In this document: positions 1-62,255 of the stretch, in pieces
Numbering within the stretch: the stretch's first letter is position 1
Layout: the number at the start of each line of letters is the position of its first letter
IMG/VR virus record: IMGVR_UViG_3300009285_001996
Strand: one strand, 5' to 3'
Length of the DNA stretch: 64,000 nucleotides
Source of the DNA: a virus
Translations under genes and position numbers: made by a program
The notes under the pieces: generated by a model
The model's input: the letters and a program-made list of their open reading frames with translations, nothing else
Database searches by the model: none
Told to the model about the DNA's origin: nothing

Positions 1-4
1 GAAA

Positions 5-2644: not shown

Positions 2645-2649
2645 GTTGA

Positions 2650-2907
2650 ATGTTAGTATACATGCTTAGAGAAGCCGAAAATGGTCAGTATTACAAAAAG
2701 AGTGGGGCTATACCAAAGTGGGTAGAGCAGGAAAAGGGGACTGTTTGGCAAACTAAACAAGGGGTGACTGGGGCTTTAGTGTATGCAAAACAACGGTGCT
2801 CTTACGCCCATTATGAAATCGTGGCTTTTGGCTTAATAGAGGTGGGAATATTAGAGAGATCGACAAAACCTAGTAATGGTAGATTTAATTGGGATATTGG
2901 AGAATAA
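2650..2907 (+). CDS. hypothetical protein
   Basis: 85-aa ORF in the operon, AGGT RBS. Confidence 0.55.
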   Translation: MLVYMLREAENGQYYKKSGAIPKWVEQEKGTVWQTKQGVTGALVYAKQRCSYAHYEIVAFGLIEVGILERSTKPSNGRFNWDIGE

Positions 2908-2914
2908 AACAAAA

Positions 2915-3724
2915 ATGTTTTCACTATTAGTATTTTCAAAAGACAGAGCCGCACAGTTAGATTTATTACTAAACTCTATAGCTAGAAATACACACTCTAT
3001 CGGCACCGTCTCTGTATTATGGAAGGCTTCTACGCCAGAGTTTGAGACTGCCTACAAGATTTTGCAGGAAGAAAGACCAGATGTTATATGGATTAAGGAG
3101 TTTGATTTTAAGAGAAATGTGTATTATATGCTGGAGTGGGCAAGTGAATATTTTGCGTTTGCCACCGATGATGATATTCTATATAGAGAGTTCAACGTAG
3201 ACGGCGATGAATTAGAGCATTTATTTAATAGTCATAACATAGCGTGTTTATCTATGCGATTAGGTTGGAACTGTACTGTCCAATATAATTATAGCGGTGA
3301 AAAAAGTGTATTTCCAAGATCGGTAATAAGAAGTGGTCAATTCTATATATGGGATCATAGATATGTTGGGAGAGGTAATTTTGCCTATAAATGGAGTGTC
3401 GATGGACATATTATGTCTAAAACATCATTTATACCAGTATTAAATACTATCGAGTTTGTCGGTCCTAATGAGATGGAAGGTAAATTGAGTATGAAAATGA
3501 GTATGGGACCACCGAATATGTCGTGTGTAGAACACTCAGTTATTGTTAATACTCCAACTAACAGAGTTCAAAACGCGGCGGCTAATAGGGCTGGAGAAGT
3601 GTACGGTAAAACCGCCGATGAATTAAATAAGTTATTTTTGCAGGGGAAAAGAATAGTATACGACAAGATTGATTTCAGCGGAATTTGTGGGTGTCACCAA
3701 GAACTTTTATTAACACTGGAATAG
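2915..3724 (+). CDS. GT-A fold glycosyltransferase-like protein
   Basis: N-terminal LLVFSKDRAAQL strand and DxD-type FATDDDI motif. Confidence 0.6.
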   Translation: MFSLLVFSKDRAAQLDLLLNSIARNTHSIGTVSVLWKASTPEFETAYKILQEERPDVIWIKEFDFKRNVYYMLEWASEYFAFATDDDILYREFNVDGDELEHLFNSHNIACLSMRLGWNCTVQYNYSGEKSVFPRSVIRSGQFYIWDHRYVGRGNFAYKWSVDGHIMSKTSFIPVLNTIEFVGPNEMEGKLSMKMSMGPPNMSCVEHSVIVNTPTNRVQNAAANRAGEVYGKTADELNKLFLQGKRIVYDKIDFSGICGCHQELLLTLE

Positions 3725-3726
3725 AA

Positions 3727-3900
3727 ATGGCTAGTATAAAAGAATCAGAAGAAGCACTAAATAAACTTATTGCCGATGGATTAGCTTATATTTATATTAG
3801 AAAAGATTATTCTGTAAGTCTAGATGGGAATTTTAAGGCTGAAGAATTAAGACTAATAGCAAACGCATTAAATAACCTAGAAAAAAATAGATGTGGGTAG
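3727..3900 (+). CDS. hypothetical protein
   Basis: short ORF filling the gap between coupled genes. Confidence 0.5.
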   Translation: MASIKESEEALNKLIADGLAYIYIRKDYSVSLDGNFKAEELRLIANALNNLEKNRCG

Positions 3901-5018
3901 ATATTTTAACAAAAGAATTTTTAACAAAAGAAATTCTTATAAACAACAAAGATTCTTTAGTAATAGCTACAGAGATTGGGTGTTCTGTAGATACAGTATG
4001 GAGACAGTGTAGAAAATTTAATATAACGAAGAAATTGTTTATTAGCGATATTAACCCAGAATGGTTGGCGTTATGGGATAACGATAAAAACACAAACATG
4101 GATATCTCAAAATTAACTTGTGGGTCAGAGCAAGAGGCGTGGTTTAAATGTGTTAATGGTCATTCTTGGATACAAAAAATTAACCAAATCAACAGAGGTA
4201 GTCAGTGTCCATACTGTACACATAAAAGAGTGGATATTGGAAAAACAGATATGGAAACACTATTTCCAGATATAACAACAATATGGAATTACAATAAAAA
4301 TTACCCAACATTACCAAGTGATATATTCCCGTATAGTATAAAAAAATATTGGTGGAGGTGTCTACTAGGACACGAATGGATTGCTCACCCAGGTAAGCTA
4401 ATAGGGTATTATAAAAAAACTAAAAAATGGGGATGTCCGTATTGTTCAAACAGAAGGGTTTTAGTTGGATTTAATGACATTCAAACCCAAAGACCAGACC
4501 TAGCAATAGAATGGGATTACGAAAGAAATATTGGTTTTGGACCAGAAGATGTAACGGTTGGTAGTAATCTAATAGTAAACTGGGTAGATGAATTTGGGCA
4601 TAGGTGGAGAACAAGAATTACTCATAGAATTCAAGATGGTACTAATTGTCCAATATGCAATGAAAGCAAATTAGAAAAACGAACAAGGAATACATTAGAA
4701 AAGTATAAAGTTAAATATGAACGTCAAAAAAGATTTGATGGGTGTAAAGACATTATTGCTTTGCCGTTTGATTTTTATTTGCCAGACTACAACATATTGA
4801 TTGAATGTCAGGGAATTCAACACTTTGCTACCGATCATAAAATATCAAAAAAATTTGCTAAATCAACCATGTTTTCGCCAAACGATTTATTAAAGTTAAA
4901 ACTACACGACGAAATTAAATTATTATTTTGTATAGATAGGCAAATAAGATTTATAAGAATATCATATTTAGAAATGGAAAATATAGAAGAAATATTAGTT
5001 AAGGAGCTATGTTTATAA
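3891..5018 (+). CDS. free-standing endonuclease: HTH + zinc-ribbon (DUF4379-like) repeats + PD-(D/E)xK domain
   Basis: repeated WxC..GHxW..R..G.CPYC units; C-terminal FDFYLPDYNILIECQGIQHF. Confidence 0.8.
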   Translation: MWVDILTKEFLTKEILINNKDSLVIATEIGCSVDTVWRQCRKFNITKKLFISDINPEWLALWDNDKNTNMDISKLTCGSEQEAWFKCVNGHSWIQKINQINRGSQCPYCTHKRVDIGKTDMETLFPDITTIWNYNKNYPTLPSDIFPYSIKKYWWRCLLGHEWIAHPGKLIGYYKKTKKWGCPYCSNRRVLVGFNDIQTQRPDLAIEWDYERNIGFGPEDVTVGSNLIVNWVDEFGHRWRTRITHRIQDGTNCPICNESKLEKRTRNTLEKYKVKYERQKRFDGCKDIIALPFDFYLPDYNILIECQGIQHFATDHKISKKFAKSTMFSPNDLLKLKLHDEIKLLFCIDRQIRFIRISYLEMENIEEILVKELCL

Positions 5019-5019
5019 T

Positions 5020-5589
5020 ATGCAGCCTTCTATTTTTGATCCAAAATGTCCACATTCTACGCATTTCCCTCTACTTAAATACTTATTAGAACAAAGCAAT
5101 GGTTTCGTAATCGAAATCGGATCAGGATATTCGAGTACGCCGCTATGTTATGAGATCGCCCATCAAAAGAATGGGTTTTGTTTATCACTAGAAAACGATA
5201 AATTCTTTTATAATAAATTTTTAGTAGATAATGACGCCAATTTTAAGATAGAGTCTGTTAAGGAATGGGTTTCGCATTTTCAGTCGCCAGAAATGGTTGA
5301 CCTACCTAAATCGAGGGATTGGTTCGTATGCCTAGTGGATAACGCACCTTGGGTGGCAAGATTAACGGCCATTGAATATGTTAAAAACTTCGTTCCATAC
5401 ATTCTCCTGCATGACTGTGATTTTTACACAAGAGAAAAGTTAGTTGATGATTGGGGAAAATACTTTAAATATTATCGAATATATAACGTACACAGTAAAC
5501 CATATAAATCTGGACCGCCGACATTACTTGGGTCTAATTTAGTGGAAAACCTAGAATTCAAAATTGAAGGTATGTATATCGAGCCATGA
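5020..5589 (+). CDS. class I SAM-dependent methyltransferase-like protein
   Basis: VIEIGSGYSST motif I; LVDN..R; ILLHD. Confidence 0.6.
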   Translation: MQPSIFDPKCPHSTHFPLLKYLLEQSNGFVIEIGSGYSSTPLCYEIAHQKNGFCLSLENDKFFYNKFLVDNDANFKIESVKEWVSHFQSPEMVDLPKSRDWFVCLVDNAPWVARLTAIEYVKNFVPYILLHDCDFYTREKLVDDWGKYFKYYRIYNVHSKPYKSGPPTLLGSNLVENLEFKIEGMYIEP

Positions 5590-6134
5590 TACCTATAACT
5601 CCCGCTAATAATAATCCGTTTGGTTCCCATCAGGCGGTATTAAATGCCGTAGTAGCGTCTCCCCTAGTTGGCAATAGAGTTTTAGAGTTTGGTTTGGGTG
5701 GATTTAGCACTGGTATTTTGTATAAAAAGGCTAGGCAGGGAAATGAGGGGTTGTTATTATCGTTCGAGACTGATATAAAATATGTCAAACAGTTTGAGTC
5801 ATATCAGGATATTTGGTTTACTATTTTTCATGTTCAACATGGATGGAATTGGGTGTTCGATAATCATCCCGCTATGAAAGAGCGGTGGAATTTGGTGTTT
5901 GTGGACCAACATCCGTACCCCCCCAGAGTTGAAACTATAAATAGGTTAAAGGATCAAGCCGACTATATTATATTACACGACGCTGTTCATCTAATAGGAT
6001 ATCCAAAAAAAGAGAGAGAATATACCGATTATTTTAAGTATGCGCAAGAGTATCCCGTGGGGGGAAGTGACCCCAGAACATTCCCCAATACTATTATTGG
6101 TAGTAATTTTCACGTTTGCGAGTTTAAAATATGA
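5586..6134 (+). CDS. class I SAM-dependent methyltransferase-like protein, paralog of 5020-5589
   Basis: VLEFGLGGFST; VFVDQ..R; IILHD; ATGA overlaps at both ends. Confidence 0.6.
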   Translation: MIPITPANNNPFGSHQAVLNAVVASPLVGNRVLEFGLGGFSTGILYKKARQGNEGLLLSFETDIKYVKQFESYQDIWFTIFHVQHGWNWVFDNHPAMKERWNLVFVDQHPYPPRVETINRLKDQADYIILHDAVHLIGYPKKEREYTDYFKYAQEYPVGGSDPRTFPNTIIGSNFHVCEFKI

Positions 6135-6865
6135 CGACAACATACGACCTATTTATACCAGCCGCCCCCAAGGACTACTCAAAAGTCCCCTATAGTATTT
6201 CCTCTGCTAAAAAATATTTAATACCACAACCAGAGAACATATATGTTGTGTCGCCATCGCCAATACTAATGGATGGCGTAAGAAATTATAATGACGATTA
6301 TGTATTAGACCTAGATTTGTCGTTATGTAAGCATAGAAGACCTCCGTGGTTAAAAATTATGTTTACAAAATTATTCCAAGATATAACCAAAAACAATCAA
6401 TATTTTGTGATTGACGCCGACGCCATATTTCTAAAGCCATTTCCGCTGTTCTCCAATGATGATAAGCCAATTTTTTTCTTTGCTTGGGAACAGGATCATC
6501 AACCATATTTTAATCTGATGAAAAAGCTATATGGATATGGCAAATTACGCAAGAGCTTTATTTGTGAGATGATGATGTTCCAAAGAGATATATGCAGGGA
6601 ATTATTATTGGGGATGTCTATCGAAGATTTTTGGGCTATAGTATGTGGAATAATAGGTGACGGAAGTAAATACCTCTTTGATGACTATGACTTTTATGGT
6701 AACTATTGTATGTATCATTATCCTACACTATACGACCACAAAGATATATCGTTAAATATGAGTGGTGGTAGAGATAAATATTATACGGCAGAGGAAATAC
6801 AACGAGCAATAGACGAACAATCTAGAAGCGAGGCTTCGGTTATGACTTTACATACGTGGCTATAA
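6131..6865 (+). CDS. GT-A / nucleotide-sugar transferase-like protein (DUF6492-like)
   Basis: DLFIPAAPKD N-terminal strand; YFVIDADAIFLKP DxD motif. Confidence 0.6.
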   Translation: MTTTYDLFIPAAPKDYSKVPYSISSAKKYLIPQPENIYVVSPSPILMDGVRNYNDDYVLDLDLSLCKHRRPPWLKIMFTKLFQDITKNNQYFVIDADAIFLKPFPLFSNDDKPIFFFAWEQDHQPYFNLMKKLYGYGKLRKSFICEMMMFQRDICRELLLGMSIEDFWAIVCGIIGDGSKYLFDDYDFYGNYCMYHYPTLYDHKDISLNMSGGRDKYYTAEEIQRAIDEQSRSEASVMTLHTWL

Positions 6866-7199
6866 CCAATGGGGATGTGCCGATGGTGAAGACGTTACAC
6901 CAGTAAATTTATCACAATTAGAACAAGCTATATTAGATTGTGGGGAAGGGGAATATCTAAGTTCTGGTTTATTTGCCGCCAGACAAAGGAAAATGCGACC
7001 ACAAGGGGCTTATTATCAACAATGTGTTCCGTTAGAATTATATCACTTATTTGATGAATGCGGACCCGAAAGAGAGGTTGGGTTTGGAAATCCAAAACCA
7101 CAACATAAAGACAAAAGTAAAGAATTATAGATTGACGAGAATATTATACATGGGATTGGATACGATATACCTGGGACGCCATATAAAAGAGAAATGTAG
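6846..7199 (+). pseudogene. degenerate ORF without a 5' start and with an internal TAG
   Basis: 94 open codons (6846-7127), TAG at 7128-7130, 22 more codons, then TAG at 7197-7199 overlapping the next GTG. Confidence 0.45.
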
Positions 7200-7783
7200 T
7201 GCCATCACAATTTAACGAAGACCTAATCTTACAAAACCTATTCTGTGACAGGGGCGGCGGCACTTACTTAGATGTTGGTGGTGGTCCCCCGATTGTTTCC
7301 TCGAATACGTTTTCGCTATACGAAAAAGGGTGGAACGGTTTGGTCATCGAACCCCAATCCGAATACGCCAAGCAATATAAAGAAATAAGACCGCGAGATA
7401 TAGTACTTACAATCGCCGCCTCCAACAAAAGCGGAAAAACCACGCTCTATGACCATAGTATGTGGGCGACACTAGAGAAACCGTCAAAACGCCGCTTTAG
7501 CGAATTAGTGGAAAACCCAGTTGACGCCTATACATTAAACGACATATTAGATAACTTTCCTGCTATACGTGATAACTGTCAATTATGTGATATAGACGTA
7601 GAACATCATGAAAAGTGTGTGATTGAGGGCATAGACATTAGTAAATTTAGACCAGAGGTATTTTTAGTGGAGGCGTTTGAATACAAGCAGTGGGAGAACA
7701 TATTACTAGATAATGGTTATAAATATTATATGGCGAGTTCGCCCGTGCCAGTAAATAGGTTTTATCTAAGAGAGGATTTATAG
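7199..7783 (+). CDS. FkbM-family methyltransferase
   Basis: YLDVGGG..SNT..GWNGLVIEP; DIDVEHHE..VIEG. Confidence 0.85.
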   Translation: MPSQFNEDLILQNLFCDRGGGTYLDVGGGPPIVSSNTFSLYEKGWNGLVIEPQSEYAKQYKEIRPRDIVLTIAASNKSGKTTLYDHSMWATLEKPSKRRFSELVENPVDAYTLNDILDNFPAIRDNCQLCDIDVEHHEKCVIEGIDISKFRPEVFLVEAFEYKQWENILLDNGYKYYMASSPVPVNRFYLREDL

Positions 7784-7806
7784 ATGAAGATTGAATGTGA
7801 AGTTGG

Positions 7807-8439
7807 GTGGAATATACTTTGAAAAACACATATTCGAGTAATGGGCAAGACCTGTGGATATTAGATCGAGTTGGTCCTAGTGGGTATTTTATTGAGGTGG
7901 GAGCCTCGGATGGAATTTCCGCGAGTAATTGCTATCTTTTGGAACAAAAAGGGTGGAGCGGCGTAGCCATAGATCCCTACACACCCAATTACCCCCTGCT
8001 TATTCAAAATAGGAAGTGCGAAATATGTTGCGCCGTAATCGACAGCGAAGAAAGAACGACTGACTTCTTATGCCAAACTAAATCATTAAGCGGACATTAT
8101 GGATTATCTGGAATTACAGACCACTTTCCGTCCTCTCAACATAAGCAGTCAATTATTGATAAGTATGGCGGGGTCTTACAAAAAGTCCAAACCCACACAC
8201 TAACTAATGTGTTACGACTGTGTAATGCACCATCCCACATAGATTATCTCTCAATTGACACAGAAGGGGGAGATTATAATGTGCTTTTAGGATTGAATTT
8301 CGATGAGTTTTCTGTATCATATATTAGCGTGGAATGTGCGAATCCTCAAAAATTTATTGATTTACTTGAGCCACACAAATTTAGATTGATTTATGACTTT
8401 AAACCGTGGCCGGATAAGATGTTCGGCAGGGAGAATTAG
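7807..8439 (+). CDS. FkbM-family methyltransferase
   Basis: GQD; FIEVGASDG..SN..GWSGVAIDP; IDYLSIDTEG. Confidence 0.9.
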   Translation: MEYTLKNTYSSNGQDLWILDRVGPSGYFIEVGASDGISASNCYLLEQKGWSGVAIDPYTPNYPLLIQNRKCEICCAVIDSEERTTDFLCQTKSLSGHYGLSGITDHFPSSQHKQSIIDKYGGVLQKVQTHTLTNVLRLCNAPSHIDYLSIDTEGGDYNVLLGLNFDEFSVSYISVECANPQKFIDLLEPHKFRLIYDFKPWPDKMFGREN

Positions 8440-9033
8440 GTGTCAAATAGCCAATTTAACGAATTCGAGATTATACGAGAGCTACTTCCCAATATTGATG
8501 ATGGGGTATATGTAGATGTTGGGGCGGGCGACCCAATTAAATTTTCAAATACTTATGATTTGTATAATTTAGGTTGGTACGGACTGTGTATTGACTTACA
8601 ATCACAATTCGTGAATGAGCATAGGCAAAAACGCCCTAGAGATATTTGCGTGTGTACCGCCCTATCTAATTATGTTGGTACAACAGAGGTATTTGGTGGA
8701 GGACACCATTGCACTATAGAAAAGGGCTACTTAAAAAATACCAATGTAAAAGTGTCAGTAACTACGTTTGATAAGGTTAGAGAACAGTACGAAGAATTAT
8801 GTGCGAAATGTCTACTTTGCTCAATTGACGTAGATTACCATGAAGATAAATTTTTTCAAGGTATGAATCTGTCATTATTTCACCCCAAGTTATTTATAGT
8901 GGAGTCGGTCAAGAAATATAAAGATGGTGCCGACGCCGAAGAGTTATGGGAAAATAAGCTGTTTGAAAACGATTATAAATTAATTAAAATTAGTAATATT
9001 GCAATTAATTACTTTTATATAAAAGCATATTAA
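8440..9033 (+). CDS. FkbM-family methyltransferase, paralog of 7199-7783
   Basis: SQFNE; YVDVGAGDP..SNT..GWYG; SIDVD. Confidence 0.85.
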   Translation: MSNSQFNEFEIIRELLPNIDDGVYVDVGAGDPIKFSNTYDLYNLGWYGLCIDLQSQFVNEHRQKRPRDICVCTALSNYVGTTEVFGGGHHCTIEKGYLKNTNVKVSVTTFDKVREQYEELCAKCLLCSIDVDYHEDKFFQGMNLSLFHPKLFIVESVKKYKDGADAEELWENKLFENDYKLIKISNIAINYFYIKAY

Positions 9034-9036
9034 ATT

Positions 9037-9690
9037 ATGAGCAAAAATAACACCTATCTTTCCCCACTATTTTTAGAAAACATTAACAAAAGCGAGGTCT
9101 CAACCATCATTGAGTGCGGGGCGGCGGACGGAGAGGACACCGTAGGAATTTATAACCACTATAACGCAAATGTGTACGCTTTTGAATGCGATCCAACTCT
9201 CCTGCTAATTTTACGCAAAAAGGCTGACTCTCGCATACACGTAATTGAAAACGGATTGTGGAGCGAGGAGTGTAGCAGGGAATTCCTATGTGTGGATAGA
9301 GATAAAAGTGTTAATAAAACGATGGGTATTTCATCAATGTATAAGTGGGCGAATTTGCCTGGTGAAAATGCCCGCAATCCACTATATCTAATACAAACGC
9401 CAATTCTAGTACAATGTACCGCGATTGATGCTTTTTGTGAAAAAAATGATGTACACCCAGATATGTTGTGATTGGATGCTCAGGGAAGTTAGTTAGAAAT
9501 ATTAAGGGGGGCTGTTAAAACTTTAACCTATGTTAAATATATCATTACAGAAGTTAACTACAAACCACAGTATGAAGGTGGTTGTAATTTTGGGCAAATT
9601 AAAGAATTTCTATTGAAGAATAATCTTAAAATAAGAGTGGACATACCCCTGTGTGGATTATTCGGTAACGCACTATTTACTAGGGGATAA
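9037..9690 (+). pseudogene. FkbM-family methyltransferase with two in-frame stops
   Basis: IIECGAADG motif; reads DML*LDAQGS*LEILRG (TGA 9469-9471, TAG 9490-9492), then stays open to TAA 9688-9690 just before the next ATG. Confidence 0.85.
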
Positions 9691-9691
9691 A

Positions 9692-10582
9692 ATGAACGTC
9701 ATTCTTACTCATGTTGGTTCAAATATACAAAGTTATTCTAAATATGGATGGCATCAATTACGTGTATTTAATCCAAATATTGATATATATTTTATAGGGC
9801 AATCTCAATCGTTATTAGATAATAAAGATGATTTAAGAAAATATAATATTATACCAATTGAGGCAGAACAGTTTAATAATAATCAACTGATTAAAGAATT
9901 TAGAAGACTACAATGGTATGACGCCTGGGGTTCTCCAAACACGGTTTTCCCTAGTCCAAAAAACTTTGTTACAGGGACAAGTTTGAGATTATATACATTA
10001 AATGCGTTTTTGGAGCAAGCTAATTTAATAGATAGTATTCATTTAGAAAATGATATAATGATTTTTGCCGACCTATACAACCTAATGGTAAAAATAAAGA
10101 ATATCTATAATAAGTTTACTTGCACTGAAATACAAGACCATTACTCGTGTTGCGGGTTTACATATATACCACACCAAAAGCATTTAAATGATGTTTGCGT
10201 GTTTATGCTTAAACTATTAGAGTTAGGTGATAGTGGTATAAAAAATAAGTACAAATTTATTCCAATGGTACATGAAATGTTATTGATTTCTTTATGGGAA
10301 GATAAGATGCTCTTTCCCATATTGCCCACCGACCAATATTATGAAGAATTGGGGTGTTTGGTTGACGGATGTAGCGTTGGTCAGTTTTTGGGTGGCACGA
10401 ATTGTTTTGGTCAGGGCGAAGGGTATGTGTCTAGCGAGCATTTTGTTGGTCGTAAAATAATGGACGGTACATATAAACCAGTGATATTGGAAAAACTACC
10501 CTATCTGGTTGATAAAGAGGGTAAATTACACAAACTAGCAAATTTGCATATACACTCAAAGAAATTAGAAAATTTTTGTTAG
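9692..10582 (+). CDS. putative nucleotide-sugar transferase-like protein
   Basis: IHLENDIMIF (ExD), DGCSVGQFLGG, NLHIHSK; paralog of 10639-11505. Confidence 0.5.
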   Translation: MNVILTHVGSNIQSYSKYGWHQLRVFNPNIDIYFIGQSQSLLDNKDDLRKYNIIPIEAEQFNNNQLIKEFRRLQWYDAWGSPNTVFPSPKNFVTGTSLRLYTLNAFLEQANLIDSIHLENDIMIFADLYNLMVKIKNIYNKFTCTEIQDHYSCCGFTYIPHQKHLNDVCVFMLKLLELGDSGIKNKYKFIPMVHEMLLISLWEDKMLFPILPTDQYYEELGCLVDGCSVGQFLGGTNCFGQGEGYVSSEHFVGRKIMDGTYKPVILEKLPYLVDKEGKLHKLANLHIHSKKLENFC

Positions 10583-10642
10583 ATAATTAACGAAATTAAC
10601 AAAATAGAAGAAATACTAAAACAAGCATTAAATATACCATGA
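10583..10642 (+). pseudogene. 3'-terminal scar of a zinc-ribbon endonuclease gene
   Basis: encodes IINEINKIEEILKQALNIP*; 10592-10619 matches 15301-15328 at 26 of 28 nt. Confidence 0.7.
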
Positions 10643-11505
10643 AAATCGTACTCACCAGTGTGGGAAATTATCCCCCTCCGTATTTGCACCACTGTTTATC
10701 GCAAATTCGCCATTACGATAAAGATATAGAGGTAGTATTATTAACAGATCAGCTAATAAAATATAATGAGTGGGCAAAATATGATGTAGAATTAAAACTG
10801 GTTTGTGGACGGTGGTTAGACTCTATAAAAGAAGTTTCTCCGCACAAAGGATTAAAATCACCAAACGGGTATGAAGAAAATGACTGGTTATTTGGTACTT
10901 GCGCCCGCATTTTCGCTATAGCGGATTACCTAGAGGGGAACGATCAAAGTCTTTATCATTTAGAGTCGGACGTTTTGTTGTATACATCCCTGTCTGAGTT
11001 AGACCATAATTTTAGACAACTTACTCAATTTTCCTGCTTACGAGCCACGTTATCACATATAAGCCTTGCTTTCTCATACATCCCTAGTTATAGATCAATA
11101 GTTGGTGTTTGCGAACACATCTTGAGTGAGTATTCTAAAAGTGAAGAGTTTTTACTAAAAAAATATGAGACCACCCCAACCGAGATGGTTATATTGTCAA
11201 AATTTAATGATTTATACATACTACCTTCCTGCAATACAGATTTTGGATATGGTCAGTTTGGAGCCTACGATCCCGCCGCGATTGGTCAATTCCTAGCAGG
11301 ACGCCACGGACACGAGAATGATGAAAGCTGGTGTGAAGACAGACATTTTCTAGGAGCAAAATTTAAGTCAAAAGAATGGACGCCTGTTTTTCAGGATGGG
11401 GAACCATTTATTAGGGATAACACTGGCGGTTTATTGTACAAACTCAATTCTCTTCATATGCACGAAAAATCTAAAATGAGTCTATTTTTAAGTGGAGATA
11501 AATAA
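10639..11505 (+). CDS. putative nucleotide-sugar transferase-like protein
   Basis: YHLESDVLLY, DPAAIGQFLAG, NSLHMH; paralog of 9692-10582. Confidence 0.5.
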   Translation: MKIVLTSVGNYPPPYLHHCLSQIRHYDKDIEVVLLTDQLIKYNEWAKYDVELKLVCGRWLDSIKEVSPHKGLKSPNGYEENDWLFGTCARIFAIADYLEGNDQSLYHLESDVLLYTSLSELDHNFRQLTQFSCLRATLSHISLAFSYIPSYRSIVGVCEHILSEYSKSEEFLLKKYETTPTEMVILSKFNDLYILPSCNTDFGYGQFGAYDPAAIGQFLAGRHGHENDESWCEDRHFLGAKFKSKEWTPVFQDGEPFIRDNTGGLLYKLNSLHMHEKSKMSLFLSGDK

Positions 11506-11506
11506 T

Positions 11507-12178
11507 ATGGGAACGTTCATTGATGTTTATATGGAACAGTATTACAATATTCTAAACCAATTACCAGATAGACAACGAGGTGATTCATTTTTGAAAATGT
11601 TTGAATTTTTGTGTCAACAACCTAATCAGCAAGATGGACTAACTATAATTGAGACCGGAAGCCTGAGACCAGGAGGTTATGATATGCCGGGGGATGGGCA
11701 GAGCACTCTTTTATTCGACCATTTTTGCCGATGGCATAACTCGACTAGGCAAAAGCCATTTAAACACACAGAGTTATTTTCGATAGATATTAATTCTAAT
11801 ACTACACAACACGCCCACTCAAAGACAAGCGAATATACAAAATGTATAAATGATGATTCTATTAACTTTTTGTGGAATTTTCAAAGAACACCGAGCCTTG
11901 TTTACTTAGATAGCGCGGATATTAACTTTCATAATCCAATGGAGTCAAGCATCCATCACCTAAAAGAATTTGCCTGTGTAATGAGATTATTAGGGCTACC
12001 ACATAATCATCAGACATTGATTTGTGTTGATGACAACTGGTTCTCAGACCAAGACGGACGTATACCTAAAAATATCAAACCATCAGACGTTGGGAAGGGT
12101 AAACTAATCAAGGAGCTATTTGCCTCAATAGGCATAAAAGCGACACACGATAATTATCAGTTAATTTATATTATATAA
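11507..12178 (+). CDS. class I SAM-dependent methyltransferase (Methyltransf_24-like)
   Basis: IIETGSLR, LVYLDS, ICVDD, GKG motifs. Confidence 0.7.
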   Translation: MGTFIDVYMEQYYNILNQLPDRQRGDSFLKMFEFLCQQPNQQDGLTIIETGSLRPGGYDMPGDGQSTLLFDHFCRWHNSTRQKPFKHTELFSIDINSNTTQHAHSKTSEYTKCINDDSINFLWNFQRTPSLVYLDSADINFHNPMESSIHHLKEFACVMRLLGLPHNHQTLICVDDNWFSDQDGRIPKNIKPSDVGKGKLIKELFASIGIKATHDNYQLIYII

Positions 12179-12183
12179 CTAAC

Positions 12184-12873
12184 ATGGAATTGTACTTTTA
12201 TTATATGCAAAGATCGGGTAGTCACGCCATTGTAAATTGGTTAGCTAATTGTATACACTTAACTACTAACGAAACAGTCAGATTACATAATGTAGGGACA
12301 AAACATGATTATGGAAAAGGTAATTTCAAACATTTTCTTAAAGTACACGAGAATATACCGCCACCATCAAAGACCAAAAAAACCACAATTGTAATAATTA
12401 GAGATGTCTTCAATTGGGCAGCAAGCATCAGACAGTGCGACCTACAAAAATTTAAAAAAATCGAAACACCCAGAGAGAACTTTCCACTTGGGATTACTAT
12501 TACTGAAAAGGTTGGGACTACGCATAACCCGATACAAACCGCTCAAAAATATATCGAGATTGCCCATTCACAAAGCAAGAAAATCATTATCTTATTTAAT
12601 AAGTGGTTTTTAGAAGAAGATTATCGCCAAAATATATGTTCACAATTAAATATAGACTATTTTGAGGATGGATTAGATTGCGTTCCGTACTTTGGTGGAG
12701 GTGGAAGTTCGTTCGATGGTACAACTATGGATGGAAATGGCAGGAAGATGTTAGTAATAGAAAGGTGGCGGAATTTCGTAGATGACGACATATACATGAA
12801 TTTTTTGCGCGGAAATCCACGTTTAATAGAAGTGTCTAATTCACTGTTTAATTTTTGCCCAATCTCGCTATGA
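12184..12873 (+). CDS. sulfotransferase-fold protein
   Basis: 5'-PSB-like QRSGSHAI and 3'-PB-like R-x7-S (RDVFNWAAS). Confidence 0.6.
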   Translation: MELYFYYMQRSGSHAIVNWLANCIHLTTNETVRLHNVGTKHDYGKGNFKHFLKVHENIPPPSKTKKTTIVIIRDVFNWAASIRQCDLQKFKKIETPRENFPLGITITEKVGTTHNPIQTAQKYIEIAHSQSKKIIILFNKWFLEEDYRQNICSQLNIDYFEDGLDCVPYFGGGGSSFDGTTMDGNGRKMLVIERWRNFVDDDIYMNFLRGNPRLIEVSNSLFNFCPISL

Positions 12874-13517
12874 TTTCAGTAATAATTCCCTGCTTAGATA
12901 AGCATGTTTACCTTTTACCCGAGTTATTTGTGGCTTACGAAAACCAAACCGTTCGCCCTGATGAACTAATAGTGGTGGTTTCGGGCGACTTCAACACAAG
13001 TGAAATTTCCTGCTTAAATACCACGATCCCCCTAATAGTGTCCGTTTCAAAACAACGATTGTATGCGGGTGCCGCCAGACAGCGTGGCGTTGATATTTCC
13101 AATGGTGAGATAATTATATTTAATGACGCTGACGATATTCCGCATAGACAGAGGGTGGAGATAACCCATTATTTTTTCAATAAATTTAACACTGTACATT
13201 TAAACGGACTGTGGAAAAGTGGTGATTTCAAATTCACCTACAATATACCCAGAATACCATTTATATTAGCAGAGGAAATAATAGAGAGAAGTATACTTAA
13301 TTATAAGCCGTATGGGGGGTGGCTAGCGGCAAACGTTCACGCGGGCAACGTAGCGGTATCTAGAGAAGTTTTCGATAAGGTGGCGTGGACCAACAGTCAA
13401 AAGGGACAGGATATGGTGTTCTGTTTAGACTTACTACATACATTTAATAGGTCAATTATTGTGTTGGCAAATCTTATCAGATATAGAATTGAGTTATCGT
13501 CATGGGGGGTTGTGTGA
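12870..13517 (+). CDS. GT2 glycosyltransferase
   Basis: ISVIIPC, AGAARQRG, IIFNDADD. Confidence 0.85.
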   Translation: MISVIIPCLDKHVYLLPELFVAYENQTVRPDELIVVVSGDFNTSEISCLNTTIPLIVSVSKQRLYAGAARQRGVDISNGEIIIFNDADDIPHRQRVEITHYFFNKFNTVHLNGLWKSGDFKFTYNIPRIPFILAEEIIERSILNYKPYGGWLAANVHAGNVAVSREVFDKVAWTNSQKGQDMVFCLDLLHTFNRSIIVLANLIRYRIELSSWGVV

Positions 13518-14209
13518 TTAAATTAAATAGTGATGATATCTATTATATTTATAATATGTTTGTGGAGCCATACCATAAACAATTGGGTAAATACGAGGAT
13601 TTCTTCTGGTGGCTACAAAACTATAATAATAAAAAGTGGAATTGGGAAGGTAAAGACTTTCCTAGAGTTATAGCGTTATTAGAGTTCGCCAGTTATGTAA
13701 AAAAATATAATTTAGTTAGTAAAAAGGTTTTAACATTTAATGGAATTCACGACCCAGAATTAGAGTATCTTCCACATAACTCTGGTGTGGATTACTTGTA
13801 CGATAAACGAACTGAAGAAAACGATCTACATATTTGGAACCCGCCAATACATGACTTTGATTTTTGTTTATTAAATCAGACATTGGAACACGTTTATGAT
13901 CCCATACTTTGTTTACAAAATATACATACACATCTCCTGCCTAATTCATATATTTGGATAACCACACCTACAATTTCCATCCCTCACGAAACTCCACTAC
14001 ATTATTATAGTTATACGCCAACTGGACTTGGAGCAGTTATTATGTCTGCGGGGTTAAAAATTGTGGAGTGTGGCTGGTGGGGGAATCGTGAGTATCTTGA
14101 TAAACTTTTAAATATAGGATGGATTGATTATACAAATCTATGTATTGAGCCATTAAAAAATGATCCTAGATTTTCAGTAATAACATGGGTGCTAGCGAAA
14201 AAAATATAA
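13514..14209 (+). CDS. SAM-dependent methyltransferase (type 11-like)
   Basis: FDFCLLNQTLEHVYDP..L.P..ITTP..HETP.HY. Confidence 0.75.
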   Translation: MIKLNSDDIYYIYNMFVEPYHKQLGKYEDFFWWLQNYNNKKWNWEGKDFPRVIALLEFASYVKKYNLVSKKVLTFNGIHDPELEYLPHNSGVDYLYDKRTEENDLHIWNPPIHDFDFCLLNQTLEHVYDPILCLQNIHTHLLPNSYIWITTPTISIPHETPLHYYSYTPTGLGAVIMSAGLKIVECGWWGNREYLDKLLNIGWIDYTNLCIEPLKNDPRFSVITWVLAKKI

Positions 14210-14211
14210 AA

Positions 14212-15363
14212 ATGTATAAGTACAACAATATATTAACGAAAGAATTACTAGAAAAAATGTATATTGCGGACCAATTAAAACCAAAACAAATAGCTAAACT
14301 AGTAGGATGTAATATAAAAACAGTAAATTATTGGTTATATAAACACAAGGTTGTGGATAAAAAAGGCCACAAATTAATTGTTGGCGTAAATGATTTTAGT
14401 ACATTAAGACCGGATTTAGCTCAACAATGGCATCCAGAAAAAAACGGTAATAAACAGCCAAAAGATTTTACTATTGGAAGCGATAAAAAAATATGGTGGG
14501 TTGATGAATTAGGGCATGAGTGGTTGGCTGATATAAACCGTAGAGTAAATAGGGGGAGCGGCTGTCCTTATTGTGCTGGCAAACGAGTATTAATTGGTTT
14601 TAATGATTTAATTACAACACACCCACAACTTTGTAAACAATGGTCCCCTAAAAACCAATTTGGACCAGAAATGGTTAGTAAGGGCAGCAAAAAAATTGTA
14701 ATTTGGGTTGACGAAATTGGGCATGAGTGGAAAGCTTCTGTTTTAAGCAGAACGCATGGAAATGGTTGCCCTTATTGTGCTAGTAATATAGTTTTGGTAG
14801 GTTTTAATGATTTAGCCACAAAAAGACCTGATTTAATTAAAGAATGGAATTATGAAAAAAACATAAATATATTGCCAACACAATTTACACAATGTAGCGG
14901 TAAAAAGGTGTGGTGGAAATGTTTGAAGTGTGGAAATGAATGGGTATCAACTATTAGTAATAGATTTAATGGCTGTGGGTGCCCAAGATGTAGCAAGAGT
15001 CAATTAGAAAAAAGCACACATCTTGTTTTAGATAAACTTTTTATTAAATGTGAACCACAATATACCTCAACTAGATGTAAATATAAAAAATCGCTTCCAT
15101 TTGATTTTTATTTACCAGAATACAATTGTTGCATAGAATGTCAAGGAATTCAACATTATCCAAAAGAATTTAAGAAATCACATTTCGCTCAACTAGATTG
15201 GACTACAAACGACCAATTAATTGCTCAAAATAAAAGAGATAAAATCAAGCGTAATTTCTGCAAAAAGAATAAAATTAAACTAATTTATATAAAATACGAC
15301 GAAATTGACAAAATAGAAGAAATACTAATTAGAGAGTTAAATTTACAAGGAGAAAAGTTATGA
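14212..15363 (+). CDS. free-standing endonuclease: HTH + three zinc-ribbon repeats + PD-(D/E)xK domain, paralog of 3891-5018
   Basis: GFNDL.T..P.L..W..KN..GHEW..GCPYC repeats; FDFYLPEYNCCIECQGIQH. Confidence 0.8.
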   Translation: MYKYNNILTKELLEKMYIADQLKPKQIAKLVGCNIKTVNYWLYKHKVVDKKGHKLIVGVNDFSTLRPDLAQQWHPEKNGNKQPKDFTIGSDKKIWWVDELGHEWLADINRRVNRGSGCPYCAGKRVLIGFNDLITTHPQLCKQWSPKNQFGPEMVSKGSKKIVIWVDEIGHEWKASVLSRTHGNGCPYCASNIVLVGFNDLATKRPDLIKEWNYEKNINILPTQFTQCSGKKVWWKCLKCGNEWVSTISNRFNGCGCPRCSKSQLEKSTHLVLDKLFIKCEPQYTSTRCKYKKSLPFDFYLPEYNCCIECQGIQHYPKEFKKSHFAQLDWTTNDQLIAQNKRDKIKRNFCKKNKIKLIYIKYDEIDKIEEILIRELNLQGEKL

Positions 15364-15482
15364 CCTTACTAGAATTGGTGATAGTATTTTCAATTGGCTT
15401 ATTTGTTGGATGGAATTTTATACCACAACCGCAGTTTATTAAAGATTGGTTTGAAAATATAAAAAATCATTACTTAAAATAG
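15360..15482 (+). CDS. small membrane protein (40 aa), absent from the ORF track
   Basis: MTLLELVIVFSIGLFVGWNFIPQPQFIKDWFENIKNHYLK; AAGGAG RBS; ATGA overlap. Confidence 0.65.
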   Translation: MTLLELVIVFSIGLFVGWNFIPQPQFIKDWFENIKNHYLK

Positions 15483-15491
15483 GAGTAGTAA

Positions 15492-15935
15492 ATGAAGTAT
15501 TTATATATTATAATGGTCTTGTTGATTAGTTGTGGATGTGAGCAAGATAGTCCGCGTGTTACTCAAACCGTCGATCAAAACCAGACAGCAATAATAACGA
15601 GATCAAAAATTCCGCCTGATTATCTTGATGTTTACAATTGGTCAGAATGGGCGAAGCCTCCATTATGTTTAATCCAATTTGAAAAGGGTGAAGGCAATGA
15701 TTTTATATGCAGTAGAAATATAATCACAATTGATGACGGTGGCATAGTATTAAATGTAGATGGAAAAGAAAGTATATATCACAAGTCATTTTCTTTAACA
15801 CCATATAGGGGCGACCATAGATATCCGTGTCCAACGTTTAATGTTTGGCATCATTACCCAAATGGTAACGATTGCACATCAGAAAAATGTCCTAACTGTG
15901 GGAAAACAATTTGTGGGACAGTGTTTTATCATTAA
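15492..15935 (+). CDS. putative lipoprotein
   Basis: MKY + hydrophobic stretch + ISCGC lipobox-like motif; AGGAG RBS. Confidence 0.55.
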   Translation: MKYLYIIMVLLISCGCEQDSPRVTQTVDQNQTAIITRSKIPPDYLDVYNWSEWAKPPLCLIQFEKGEGNDFICSRNIITIDDGGIVLNVDGKESIYHKSFSLTPYRGDHRYPCPTFNVWHHYPNGNDCTSEKCPNCGKTICGTVFYH

Positions 15936-15946
15936 CGGAGAAAAAT

Positions 15947-16294
15947 ATGAAATATAAATATAAGTATACTGGCATAATTCTTAAGGTTGTAGACGGTGAT
16001 ACGATTGATGTCGATCTTGACCTTGGGTTTCGTATCTGGGTACGAGACCGCTTTCGACTATATGGCATCAACGCGCCCGAAATGAGCACTCCAGAGGGTG
16101 TGAAAGCTAAGAAGGAATTAGAAAAACTATTGCCAGTGGGCAAATTGGTTAACATAGATAGTCGCAAGGATAAGAAGGAGAAATATGGAAGATGGCTAGC
16201 TATTATTAAGTGTGGAAGTATAAATGTTAATAAACATATGTTGGAGAGTGGAAACGCTGTAGAATTTATGCTAGGGAAAGAGGAACATCTATAA
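15947..16294 (+). CDS. thermonuclease (SNase-like)
   Basis: VVDGDTIDV, RLYGINAPE, KYGRWLA. Confidence 0.92.
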   Translation: MKYKYKYTGIILKVVDGDTIDVDLDLGFRIWVRDRFRLYGINAPEMSTPEGVKAKKELEKLLPVGKLVNIDSRKDKKEKYGRWLAIIKCGSINVNKHMLESGNAVEFMLGKEEHL

Positions 16295-16740
16295 TGAATT
16301 TTCAGACAAGAGAAAAAGAATGTGAACTAATGGTATCTTTATTACCAAAAGACATAAAAACAGTATTAGAACCAACACCAGGGAAAGGAAACTTGGTGCG
16401 AGTATTGAAAAAACACGGATATGATGTAGTTGCACCAAATAATTTTTGGGATATTGATGGAAGATTTGATGCCGTTGTAATGAATCCACCATTTAGTCCA
16501 ATGAAAGTTGGTTATGAAATACTATACAAGGTTATGGAAATGACAGATGTAATTATAGCACTTATGCCGTGGTTAACAATAATAAATTCAAAAAAGAGAA
16601 CTAAAGACATTTATAATTTTGGTGTCAAATCTATACATAATTTACCAAGAGACGCTTTTAAGGGCTCTCGGGTACAAACATGTATATTAAATATGGAAAA
16701 TGGATATAATGGTAAAACATATATAGAACTTATTGTGTAA
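16294..16740 (+). CDS. compact N6-adenine DNA methyltransferase (gamma class)
   Basis: LEPTPGKGNL then FDAVVMNPPF; TAATG overlap with the SNase gene. Confidence 0.85.
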   Translation: MNFQTREKECELMVSLLPKDIKTVLEPTPGKGNLVRVLKKHGYDVVAPNNFWDIDGRFDAVVMNPPFSPMKVGYEILYKVMEMTDVIIALMPWLTIINSKKRTKDIYNFGVKSIHNLPRDAFKGSRVQTCILNMENGYNGKTYIELIV

Positions 16741-16758
16741 TATGATGGGGGTAATATA

Positions 16759-17559
16759 GTGAAATTAATACAAGGAACGCTATTTAAAGAGTTAGCTCAA
16801 CAGTATTCGCACACAAGACGAGGTTTTCGATTAGAATATGCACATACCCATGATACTAAAGACTTATTTGATAATATAAGGAAAGATAGCGAGAATTTGT
16901 ATGTGTGTATTACCCATAATAGTGATGGTTGTGTAATTCGTGGTAGTAATAGACCATACGATATTGATCCACTGGAGATGCCGCGAAATGTGGTTAAATT
17001 GTATTCTCAAAACGTATGTTATAATGATGATAGAATTATTCCCCTCGGTATTTTCCTCGAAAACAGTTATTGCTTCCCGTCCATAAATAAGCTAGAACAA
17101 ATTAGCAGGAAAAGGAACAGTATAAATTTAGATGGGGACAGACCTAATCTCGTTTATATGAATTTTAACCCTACCACTAATCCTGCAACTAGAACACCAG
17201 TATATGAATACTTTAAACAATTTGATTGGGTTACTGTTGACTGCCACCCTAATGGATTTCGGTATGAGTCATTTTTAGACAATTTGGCAACTCACAGATA
17301 CGTCCTCTGTCCCCCTGGTAATGGCGCAAGCTGTCACCGTGAATTCGAGGCGAGTTACCTTGGTTGTATACCTATTATGCTTTCCTGCATAAATAATCGT
17401 GAGTTTGAAGAAAACATGCCAATAGTAGCCATTAACGACTGGAGAGAGGTGGATGAACGCTATTTGGAAAGTTTTTATGTAGGCGTTAATTTAAGCGAAT
17501 TATATGATAACGATATGTTAGACTTTAATTACTGGAAAGAGCGGATATTAAATACATAG
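16759..17559 (+). CDS. exostosin-like (GT47-type) glycosyltransferase
   Basis: RYVLCPPGNG..HREFEA.YLGCIPI C-terminal signature. Confidence 0.7.
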   Translation: MKLIQGTLFKELAQQYSHTRRGFRLEYAHTHDTKDLFDNIRKDSENLYVCITHNSDGCVIRGSNRPYDIDPLEMPRNVVKLYSQNVCYNDDRIIPLGIFLENSYCFPSINKLEQISRKRNSINLDGDRPNLVYMNFNPTTNPATRTPVYEYFKQFDWVTVDCHPNGFRYESFLDNLATHRYVLCPPGNGASCHREFEASYLGCIPIMLSCINNREFEENMPIVAINDWREVDERYLESFYVGVNLSELYDNDMLDFNYWKERILNT

Positions 17560-17568
17560 AAATTACTA

Positions 17569-17879
17569 ATGGCAACACTTAAAAAAACTTTAACAAAAAA
17601 ATTTCTTTATCAAAAATATATAATAGAACAACTGTCATCATATCAGATAGCAAAGAGTGTTGGGTGTGATAGAAAAACAGTATCTAGGTATTTGAAAAAA
17701 TACTTTTTGAGACAAAAATATTTACATGATAACCTATCAACTATAGAAATAGCCACAAGTGTTGGTTGTTCTACAAGAACAGTATTAGACTACATAAAAA
17801 AATTGAGATAAAATTAATATATATAAAATATACAAAAATAGATCAAATAGAGGATATTTTAAATAATAACTTAATATAG
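17569..17879 (+). pseudogene. internally deleted endonuclease derivative: two HTH units + endonuclease C-terminal tail in the -1 frame
   Basis: LTKKFLYQKY..LS..IA..VGC...TV unit twice; A7 run at 17796-17802; -1 frame reads IEIKLIYIKYTKIDQIEDILNNNLI*. Confidence 0.65.
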
Positions 17880-17888
17880 GGAATAAAT

Positions 17889-18392
17889 ATGATTGAGTTG
17901 AATTTTGCAATAGATAGTTTAGATAAGTCACAGTGCTCTTTTTATCTAATAAATGAGTTATGTAAACATAAAAATAAAATTTCGCCGTTAATCTTTGTAT
18001 CAAATATTACAATCCTACCATTTGCGCCCCCCTGCCCCGTCCTGCACGCCGCTGAAGCATGGGGGCAGGAAGGAATTATGATTACGACCACGCCAGCCAC
18101 CACCTTTAAGTGTTTTAAATTTCCTAGATTAACAAGACGAATTTTTTACCTTTGGGATTTGTACTATTTAAGGGGAGGTAGAAGAGTATACGAGCCATAC
18201 CTAGACCTATTTAGCAGGGAAAACCTAGAAATAGTAGTAAGAAGCGAAAGTCATAAGCGGGCGGTGGAAAATTGTTTTAATGTTCAAGTTAAGGGTATAG
18301 TTGACAATTTTAACATGGACGATATGCTCAATGTGTTAAACATTGTAGATGATGGCTCGCCCAACAAACAGGTTTTAGTGCATGGTATTTAA
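17889..18392 (+). CDS. hypothetical protein, possibly glycosyltransferase-related
   Basis: 167-aa ORF; alpha/beta pattern with IFYLWD; function weakly supported. Confidence 0.45.
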   Translation: MIELNFAIDSLDKSQCSFYLINELCKHKNKISPLIFVSNITILPFAPPCPVLHAAEAWGQEGIMITTTPATTFKCFKFPRLTRRIFYLWDLYYLRGGRRVYEPYLDLFSRENLEIVVRSESHKRAVENCFNVQVKGIVDNFNMDDMLNVLNIVDDGSPNKQVLVHGI

Positions 18393-60784: not shown

Positions 60785-61235
60785 TATTTACAACCTCTTT
60801 AAAAATACAAGACGCCATTTCTTTACCACTATTACCACAAAACAAAATTTTAGTGTTATACTTCATTAGTAATTCCACGGTCTTTTTCATTACAAACTTT
60901 CCACTAAACTTACACTTAGATACAACCCGTGGTGGTAGCCCACAATTATGCGGATATAACAACATATCTGTTAGTTCAAATTCTAGTATAATAAACGAAT
61001 ATTTGTACAACTCTAAACGTTCAATCTCATTGACAAATCTTTGTTCTATAACATTATGGGCGAATTCGGCTACGCTACCCTTACGCTCGATAGATAGTAT
61101 ACTTTCAAACCCTTCTAAACTATAGTCTCCACTATCCAATTTTTTAACCATAGTCCCTAGACACTCTTTATATTTAGAGAAATACCATCCTTGATTTTCT
61201 TTTTCTCTTGTGTCACGGATTACGGTGTAGTTCAT
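60771..61235 (-). CDS. ERCC4-domain nuclease
   Basis: IRDTRE, LDSGDYSL, SIERK. Confidence 0.85.
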   Translation of the reverse strand: MNYTVIRDTREKENQGWYFSKYKECLGTMVKKLDSGDYSLEGFESILSIERKGSVAEFAHNVIEQRFVNEIERLELYKYSFIILEFELTDMLLYPHNCGLPPRVVSKCKFSGKFVMKKTVELLMKYNTKILFCGNSGKEMASCIFKEVVNNGNN

Positions 61236-62245: not shown

Positions 62246-62255
62246 ATATAATCTC

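Follow-up and report, generated by a model that had tools for sequence, protein, structure and literature searches.

Glycan assembly and tailoring genes of an uncultured tailed phage include a homolog of a chlorovirus capsid glycosyltransferase

Which glycan is made, and on which acceptor, by the dense array of glycosyltransferase (GT), methyltransferase, and sulfotransferase genes on the plus strand of IMG/VR virus record IMGVR_UViG_3300009285_001996? The 64,000-nucleotide stretch analyzed here (the window) is part of the genome of an uncultured tailed phage of ~171 kb; six metagenome studies of groundwater and soil contain its DNA at 99.9–100% identity, and contigs carrying it reach 170,961 and 171,070 bp. 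Through identical metagenome contigs and their precomputed Pfam hits, ~134 of the ~171 kb could be seen. The coordinate map (window position = L085 position − 9198) comes from a 100% identical overlap, and L-numbers throughout label the viral and metagenome contig loci compared with the window. The minus strand from ~21.7 to 64 kb forms the late arm, with the large terminase (phrog_2, E 2.5e-22), portal, the GDP-mannose 4,6-dehydratase gene gmd, and a LamG protein; a 1892-aa open reading frame (ORF) on this strand is taken to be the tape measure, and the large unannotated ORFs are presumed to be tail or fiber genes. The nearest terminase among isolated phages is only 24–26% identical, and the island has no megablast match among 50,697 phage records. 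A first-pass annotation made from the nucleotide sequence had proposed a glycan build-and-decorate system linked to the virion operon. Its inventory was right, and the system proved larger, with ~14 kb more upstream.

The island exceeds 30 kb. Its plus-strand block starts ~14.4 kb before window base 1, directly after genes for a split DNA polymerase III alpha, an exonuclease, and single-stranded DNA-binding protein (SSB). It runs through two weakly matching GT4-type genes (567 and 381 aa), a DUF4406 gene, and a Methyltransf_23 gene, and then through a firm 339-aa GT4, a 256-aa GT2, a YAcAr gene, a firm 329-aa GT4, a short-chain dehydrogenase/reductase (SDR) that is kin of UDP-sugar 4-epimerases and UDP-glucuronate decarboxylases, and GDP-L-fucose synthase (fcl/GMER). 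The last bases of fcl are window positions 1..2 (+), the remainder lying upstream at L085:8232-9200, and its product matches PDB 7ll6 and 1bws in phmmer at E ~1e-46. The gene for the other enzyme of the pathway, gmd, is located in the packaging module beside terL (61235..62266, −; PF16363, E 5e-102). With fcl upstream and gmd on the late strand, the phage therefore encodes a predicted GDP-L-fucose pathway that is complete. Phage totals come to ~11 GT-like genes, nine methyltransferase genes (one dead), two sulfotransferase-like genes, and three nucleotide-sugar enzymes. Junctions between island genes are mostly −40 to +23 nt. Two DUF4379 zinc-finger genes, an SNase gene, and a DNA-methyltransferase-like gene break up the series of enzyme genes. 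No transmembrane (TM) helix is predicted in any of the window's GT and methyltransferase enzymes. Across the ~134 kb there is no ORF of at least 150 aa with at least four TM segments, nor any Pfam match to an initiating phosphoglycosyl transferase, flippase, polymerase (Wzx/Wzy), or ABC exporter. The absence of a flippase, Wzy, exporter, or TM-rich GT recorded in the first-pass annotation is thus real over ~134 kb, but it argues only weakly for a cytoplasmic substrate, since the export machinery of the host is available to a phage.

The gene at 16759..17559 (+) encodes a GT114 glycosyltransferase that, by profile and single-sequence matches, is a full-length homolog of the CHARACTERISED enzyme PBCV-1 A075L (CAZy GT114), a family characterized by inverting, metal-independent β-xylosyl transfer to O-4 of fucose. 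Its Exostosin Pfam match is below threshold. The profile of its family (39 members including 16759) matches PDB 8avq, 8asa, and 8q8i at E 9e-68 over positions 3-260 of 262, and 16759 alone matches A075L at E 2e-19. These PDB entries are A075L, the founder of CAZy family GT114, a β-xylosyltransferase that transfers xylose to O-4 of fucose in the N-glycan of the major capsid protein Vp54; GT114 homologs have been reported in viruses and bacteria, and the key A075L residues are the donor-binding Asn148, Arg158, and Arg208 and the catalytic base Asp73 (PMC11571054). Residues N135, R145, N188, and R194 of 16759 align with A075L Asn148, Arg158, Asn202, and Arg208. Asp73 lies beyond the printed alignment with 16759, and the family-invariant S55-D56, which matches Ser72-Asp73 by position only, is the likely counterpart of the Asp73 region.

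The five other GT-like genes that the first-pass annotation listed in the window (2915, 6131, 9692, 10639, and 12870) are, like 16759, supported by profile, homolog, or structure evidence. Single-sequence searches of Pfam (E ≤10), PHROGs, and NCBIfam gave nothing useful for the ORFs at 2876, 5020, 5586, 6131, 9653, 10639, and 12184, and phmmer searches with 11492, 6131, and 5020 as single sequences found no PDB match; ORFs silent in such searches were assigned via homologs and structure. The starts 2915, 9692, 11507, and 12870 agree with conserved N-termini better than do the longest ORFs, which begin at 2876, 9653, 11492, and 12855. Families are denoted by letter: A (2915), B1 and B2 (5020 and 5586), C (6131), M (9037), D1 and D2 (9692 and 10639), and E (11507), with 16759 denoted GT114. 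Family A (2915..3724, +) is a GT2-like enzyme of the GT-A fold, recognized by Atlas structure and feature search (TM 0.55-0.64 to GT2 clusters), and belongs to a large viral family; it has a 38% identical homolog in contig L004 and is fused to C in L074. The GT2 glycosyltransferase at 12870..13517 (+) matches PF00535 directly (E 1e-9).

Family C (6131..6865, +) is assigned through its homologs to DUF6492; it is an enzyme of the GT-A fold, nearest in fold to Stealth sugar-1-phosphate transferases. DUF6492 (PF20102) is matched by 30 of 31 aligned homologs from other loci (best E 7e-13); the window copy itself falls short of E 0.01 and is 22–41% identical to the DUF6492-matching sequences, with all invariant residues kept. 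Its AlphaFold2 (AF2) model has a pLDDT of 95, and the top Foldseek matches are CpsY, GNPTAB, SacB, XcbA, and Fcs1 at TM 0.58-0.70, with GT6 next. Stealth_CR2 is touched by two of the 31 homologs (E 0.002), and the modeled enzyme is best described as Stealth-like in fold. D1 (9692..10582, +) and D2 (10639..11505, +) are 25% identical paralogs of the GT-A fold, nearest to the GT8 and GT6 retaining transferases. D1 keeps all nine invariant residues of a 53-sequence family alignment; D2 was assigned through the Atlas and through an AF2 model (pLDDT 89) whose Foldseek matches are BoGT6a, LgtC, and glycogenin, so that the structure check proposed earlier supports the GT-A folds of both 6131 and 10639. 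The D family has no Pfam model, although 4,371 cluster representatives belong to it at E ≤0.001 and 1,024 at E ≤1e-30. Its profile found no credible match among PDB sequences, and tblastn against the 50,697 phage records returned no match for D and only two uncultured megaphage records for A.

All eight small methyltransferases of the first-pass annotation are supported, including a broken one. B1 (5020..5589, +) and B2 (5586..6134, +) are class I S-adenosylmethionine (SAM) O-methyltransferases, 34% identical to each other, whose shared family profile matches family-3 O-methyltransferase structures (3ntv, E 7e-5); B1 keeps all family invariant residues. Three FkbM methyltransferases follow on the plus strand, at 7199..7783 (PF05050, E 6e-14, 53 bits), 7807..8439 (E 8e-13, 49 bits), and 8440..9033, the last scoring 20.8 bits, just below the PF05050 gathering cutoff of 22.7 bits, and 36% identical to 7199. 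The E gene (11507..12178, +) encodes a Methyltransf_24-type class I enzyme whose homologs carry PF13578 or are named YrrM O-methyltransferase, its single-sequence match being solely phrog_24975, a family of unknown function. A Methyltransf_23 class I enzyme, assigned by a Pfam match, is encoded at 13502..14209 (+), and its homologs (34–40% identical) adjoin the cassette described below in L048, L053, L074, and L049-51. The FkbM-like M gene at 9037..9669 (+) is, judged by its reading frame, a recent pseudogene in an otherwise intact array: tblastn with homologs of 204–221 aa aligns 9046-9669 in one frame, and the homology runs through two in-frame stops, a TGA at 9469-9471 and a TAG 18 nt further, which are in an identical state in all population contigs read. 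Stop-codon recoding was considered for 9037 and ruled out, since two different stops occur in one gene and all other genes are open under code 11.

The product of 12184..12873 (+) is a predicted PAPS-dependent sulfotransferase by fold and motif: without a direct Pfam match, it has an Atlas feature score of 0.96 and TM 0.60-0.68 to Sulfotransfer_1/3 clusters, and it carries RSGS and R73-x7-S81 (the 5'-phosphosulfate loop and 3'-phosphate motif). The sulfotransferase fold that the first-pass annotation had assigned to it is thereby upheld, as are the two late-strand genes, gmd and a second sulfotransferase. The latter, in the tail module beside the tape-measure gene (34575..35789, −), matches PF00685 at E 3e-7 over a partial stretch and has RSGTS and R-x7-S motifs.

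The enzymes recur together in hundreds of phage contigs, in metagenome-assembled genomes (MAGs) of giant viruses, and in some bacteria. Single proteins used as queries brought up no related loci; a D-family alignment searched against IMG/VR gave 178 relatives, 80 of whose loci were kept for viral counts, on giant-virus MAGs and on phage contigs as long as 308 kb. In these viral loci the D homolog is accompanied by GT114 (66/80), C (49/80), gmd (25/80), B-type O-methyltransferase (up to 26/80), and the 9037-type methyltransferase M (18/80), usually in the collinear order C-D-M-GT114-B, as in L009:9258-12909; the synteny in relatives that the earlier annotation had suggested checking is thus present. 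Nearest in synteny is an ENA contig of 6.6 kb (L004) with FkbM, A, C, a B remnant, IS605 OrfB, D, and GT114 at 29–42% identity. There the IS605 OrfB/TnpB gene (L004:3527-4642) sits on the opposite strand between the B remnant and D. Several families also occur as fusions: A with C in L074, C with D in L056, D with GT114 in giant-virus contigs L065-L067, and D, GT114, E, and C together in one 1060-aa protein of a viral contig (L080:9770-12952). These fusions provide strong sequence evidence that the cassette families act in one pathway. The L080 protein is itself a natural candidate for a one-chain glycan synthase. Other cassette contigs add a DegT aminotransferase, oxidoreductases, and GMD-like reductases, which fits variable 6-deoxyhexose chemistry.

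With folds, family membership, the GDP-fucose pathway, cassette conservation, and fusions observed, we infer that the island is an entirely cytoplasmic glycan assembly line. Host GDP-mannose would be converted to GDP-L-fucose by Gmd from the late strand and Fcl from upstream, and the second SDR may supply another nucleotide sugar. The ~11 soluble transferases (GT4-type, GT2, A, D1/D2, C, and GT114) would then assemble an oligosaccharide, seven intact SAM methyltransferases (three FkbM, two family-3-like, one Methyltransf_24, and one Methyltransf_23) would O-methylate it, and one or two sulfotransferases drawing on host PAPS would sulfate it. The reaction order, the identity of every sugar except fucose, the placement of methyl and sulfate groups on the sugar, and the acceptor are our proposal. 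For the acceptor, our best reading, which we hold to be about as probable as all others combined, is the virion proteins of the phage itself, in parallel with the chlorovirus capsid, where the enzyme is homologous, and with mycobacteriophage virions. The first-pass annotation had also favored a virion-protein target; this candidate target is now better founded because of the A075L homolog, the cassette in the head operon of other phages, and its sharing with giant viruses. The hosts of giant viruses have no bacterial envelope. The late-strand neighborhoods, gmd next to terL and a sulfotransferase next to the tape-measure gene, also favor the virion, as does the lack of membrane or export components in ~134 kb of this genome and in all 80 viral loci. 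The head operon in question belongs to one phage lineage of ~22 contigs, in which the cassette and GT11, GT10, and GT2 genes lie between the major capsid and neck genes. The order runs from portal (phrog_146), minor head protein, phrog_760, head decoration protein, and major capsid (phrog_771/264, DUF6260) to a sialyltransferase/MptE-like gene, GT11, C, D, M, GT114, B, GT10, GT2, and Neck1.

The likeness to chlorovirus PBCV-1 extends beyond A075L. The PBCV-1 Vp54 N-glycan system (A075L, A064R, A111/114R, A061L, and the GDP-mannose dehydratase A118R) also combines soluble cytoplasmic GTs with sugar O-methyltransferases and a GDP-mannose dehydratase (PMC11571054, PMC9614988). Both systems have fucose metabolism and an A075L-type enzyme with aligned donor-binding Asn/Arg residues, and in both the glycan genes lie outside a structural operon. 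Besides GMD and soluble GTs, PBCV-1 encodes two sugar O-methyltransferases, and expression of its GT genes is early (PMC9614988), so the position of the island in the early arm is no argument against a capsid target. The differences are that a tailed phage of a bacterium is concerned here and a giant virus of an alga there, that homology is shown for A075L but not for A064R or A111/114R, that the phage has many more methyltransferases (FkbM, Methyltransf_24, and family-3 types), and that its two sulfotransferases and Stealth-like enzyme are unreported in chloroviruses, PMC9614988 making no mention of a sulfotransferase. Among tailed phages, the mycobacteriophages Che8, Corndog, and Myrna carry glycans on capsid and tail-tube subunits (Freeman et al. 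2023 via PMC11600133, PMC12363180). As described in those citing papers, their systems resemble the island in having tandem GTs and an O-methyltransferase, but comprise 3–4 genes in contrast to more than 25 here, where sulfotransferases and nucleotide-sugar synthesis are added and where no C-terminal acceptor tails were seen.

Several observations weigh against a virion target. No convincing Ser/Thr-rich C-terminal acceptor tail was found on the major capsid candidate (52955-53962) or on most structural proteins. Two weak acceptor leads were noted: a 175-aa high-GC protein at 51078-51605 (−) with a PTTTTTAG run near its C-terminus, and a 495-aa protein at 54515-56002 (−), between the portal and capsid genes, with a Thr/Ser/Glu-rich end. 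The island is neither in nor beside the structural operon; it lies on the non-structural strand directly downstream of replication genes, and its sole links to late genes are gmd beside terL and the sulfotransferase beside the tape-measure gene. The link to the virion operon claimed in the first-pass annotation thus holds for those two genes in late modules but not for the island itself. The motif GTGTATAYWW, a sequence that fits a phage-specific late promoter and is a candidate for one, occurs eight times in the window against 2.15 expected by shuffling, with six copies on the late strand (23345, 45343, 49206, 52424, 58649, and 63310, −) and no copy on the island's plus strand; a scan for sigma-70 promoters and terminators showed no enrichment over shuffles. 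The ~22 head-module loci are one lineage and amount to about one evolutionary event, and a T4-like lineage of seven contigs has the cassette in a non-structural setting, adjoining helicase, the gp55 late sigma factor, and gp47/46. Moreover, D, GT114, and C are found together in bacteria as well, in genomes of Actinomarina, Pelagibacter, Polynucleobacter, Flavobacterium, and many Chlamydiae and Dependentiae; D and GT114 co-occur in 56 of 79 such loci, and some of these loci have a 9-12-TM protein directly beside D; the bacterial D and GT114 homologs probably build cell-surface glycans. The phage sequence was found in no RNA run.

These bacterial homologs bring up the alternative of host-surface remodeling, which we regard as doubtful while giving it real weight. 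Here the soluble enzymes would work from the cytoplasmic side of the membrane on lipid-linked host lipopolysaccharide (LPS), exopolysaccharide (EPS), or capsule intermediates, and the host flippase and polymerase would export the product; the altered surface would then block superinfection or stop the loss of progeny on cell debris. Apart from the bacterial D, GT114, and C homologs with their occasional multi-TM neighbor, it draws on the closest fold relatives of C, which are capsule and EPS phosphotransferases, and on the non-structural location of the cassette in the T4-like contigs. It also draws on the cyanomyovirus clusters of P-TIM68, P-SSM2, and S-SCSM2R, large blocks of soluble GT, epimerase, and GMD-type genes in big aquatic phages: E has a 31% identical homolog in P-TIM68 within a cluster of GT, epimerase, and heptose genes, and such clusters are read as modifying the cell wall (PMC12801897). 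That cell-wall reading is itself, like the target proposed here, a hypothesis, and the cyanomyovirus clusters differ from the island in their heptose and KDO genes, read as host-surface modification (PMC12801897), whereas D, C, and A have no or almost no tblastn match among the 50,697 phage records. Neither the ~134 kb nor the 80 viral loci contain an initiating phosphoglycosyl transferase, flippase, polymerase, ABC exporter, or polytopic membrane protein, which counts against a surface target. A polytopic membrane protein occurs near D in 29 of 79 cellular versus 0 of 80 viral loci, and ORFs with at least seven TM segments in 0 of 80 viral loci, although the cellular figure is about what is expected for 20 kb of any bacterial genome and is therefore weak evidence. 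Against host-surface remodeling stand, in addition, the presence of the cassette in giant-virus MAGs and in the head operon of one phage lineage, and the fact that the one characterized homolog, A075L, works on a protein-linked capsid glycan.

Modification of some other cytoplasmic acceptor, such as a non-virion phage or host protein, a lipid, a small molecule, or a free decoy glycan released at lysis, seems improbable. It would suit enzymes that are all soluble, an island in the early arm, and the failure to name an acceptor, but it has no positive evidence and fails to explain the head-operon position in relatives or the placement of gmd and a sulfotransferase inside virion modules.

Least probable, and in our view very unlikely, is that some of the GTs, and possibly methyl- or sulfotransferases, decorate modified phage DNA bases against restriction: phage GT-A and GT-B enzymes are known to place di- and trisaccharides on 5hmC, in clusters where GTs lie beside a ThyA-type hydroxymethylase or a C5-methyltransferase and TET-like dioxygenase (5mYOX) (Pyle et al., bioRxiv 10.1101/2023.12.21.572611), and the island likewise is a multi-GT cluster directly downstream of DNA polymerase III, exonuclease, and SSB, with N6/N4 DNA methyltransferases, nucleases, DUF4406 and YAcAr genes interspersed and a weak dNMP-kinase match upstream, but those defining partners are all unseen in the precomputed Pfam matches over ~134 of ~171 kb, ThyX and dCMP deaminase indicate the ordinary dTMP route, FkbM, O-methyltransferase, sulfotransferase, GDP-fucose, and A075L-type enzymes are sugar-tailoring families that belong to no known DNA modification pathway, and other phages carry the cassette in a head operon or beside other sugar genes.

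The genes interspersed in the island include two DUF4379 triple zinc-finger, endonuclease-like genes outside the pathway, at 3891..5018 (+; PF14311, E 3e-36) and 14185..15363 (+; PF14311, E 6e-52), which are 38% identical paralogs. The early arm holds at least four DUF4379 genes and one derivative reduced to a helix-turn-helix (HTH) (3891-5018, 14185-15363, 17569-17811; L096:1-255, 2019-3266), adjoining primase, DnaB, DNA methyltransferases, and glycan genes; the set looks like a homing-endonuclease-type family multiplying inside the genome. Upstream of the island, DNA polymerase III alpha is encoded in two pieces, a PHP/polymerase part of 641 aa and a finger/HhH part of 581 aa, which flank an RNase T-type exonuclease gene (L091:1-3125; L096:8086-12428). 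Further upstream, L098:1-9924 encodes ThyX, dCMP deaminase, class II ribonucleotide reductase, thioredoxin, ClpP protease, and a sigma-70 region-2-like gene. In the late arm, an ORF of 1137 aa at 23843-27256, presumed to be a tail fiber, is called as two genes (654 and 494 aa) in a 99.95% identical contig (L093:17085-20505), and the split call may reflect a receptor-binding gene in which a stop or frameshift is polymorphic. Past the right end of the window by ~1.8-4.7 kb, L088:4905-7843 has ~3 kb without a called gene, with only 37–67-aa ORFs in another contig, and could hold RNA genes, a regulatory region, or an origin.

A wider reading that we put forward tentatively, at somewhat below even likelihood, is that D, GT114, DUF6492, and the methyltransferases form a modular toolkit common to giant viruses, tailed phages, and certain bacteria with intracellular or streamlined lifestyles. 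Phages would use it to coat the particles they make; in the present case the coat would be a fucose-containing glycan, sulfated, heavily O-methylated, and possibly joined by phosphodiester links. Phage virion glycosylation (Che8, Corndog, Myrna), cyanomyovirus GT clusters, and GT114 homologs in viruses and bacteria were known beforehand. We found no earlier description of an island on this scale, of sulfotransferases within it, of the Stealth-like DUF6492 enzyme, of the collinear cassette with its fusions, or of an explicit tie connecting a tailed phage to the enzyme of the chlorovirus capsid glycan. The island places DUF6492 and the Pfam-less D family in a concrete pathway, and it offers a small set of soluble, expressible, and assayable enzymes, among them the A075L homolog. 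Demonstrated virion glycosylation in tailed phages comprises, in the papers citing that work, a few mycobacteriophages with small gene sets. If the island coats the particle, environmental phages would widely encode glycans for their own virions, these glycans could match those of giant viruses in elaboration, and the possible sulfate would alter charge, adsorption, and recognition by host defenses or grazers. Should the shared toolkit hold true, the phage would provide the first case of a sulfated virion glycan in any virus of bacteria, and capsid glycosylation in phages and chloroviruses would be linked by descent.

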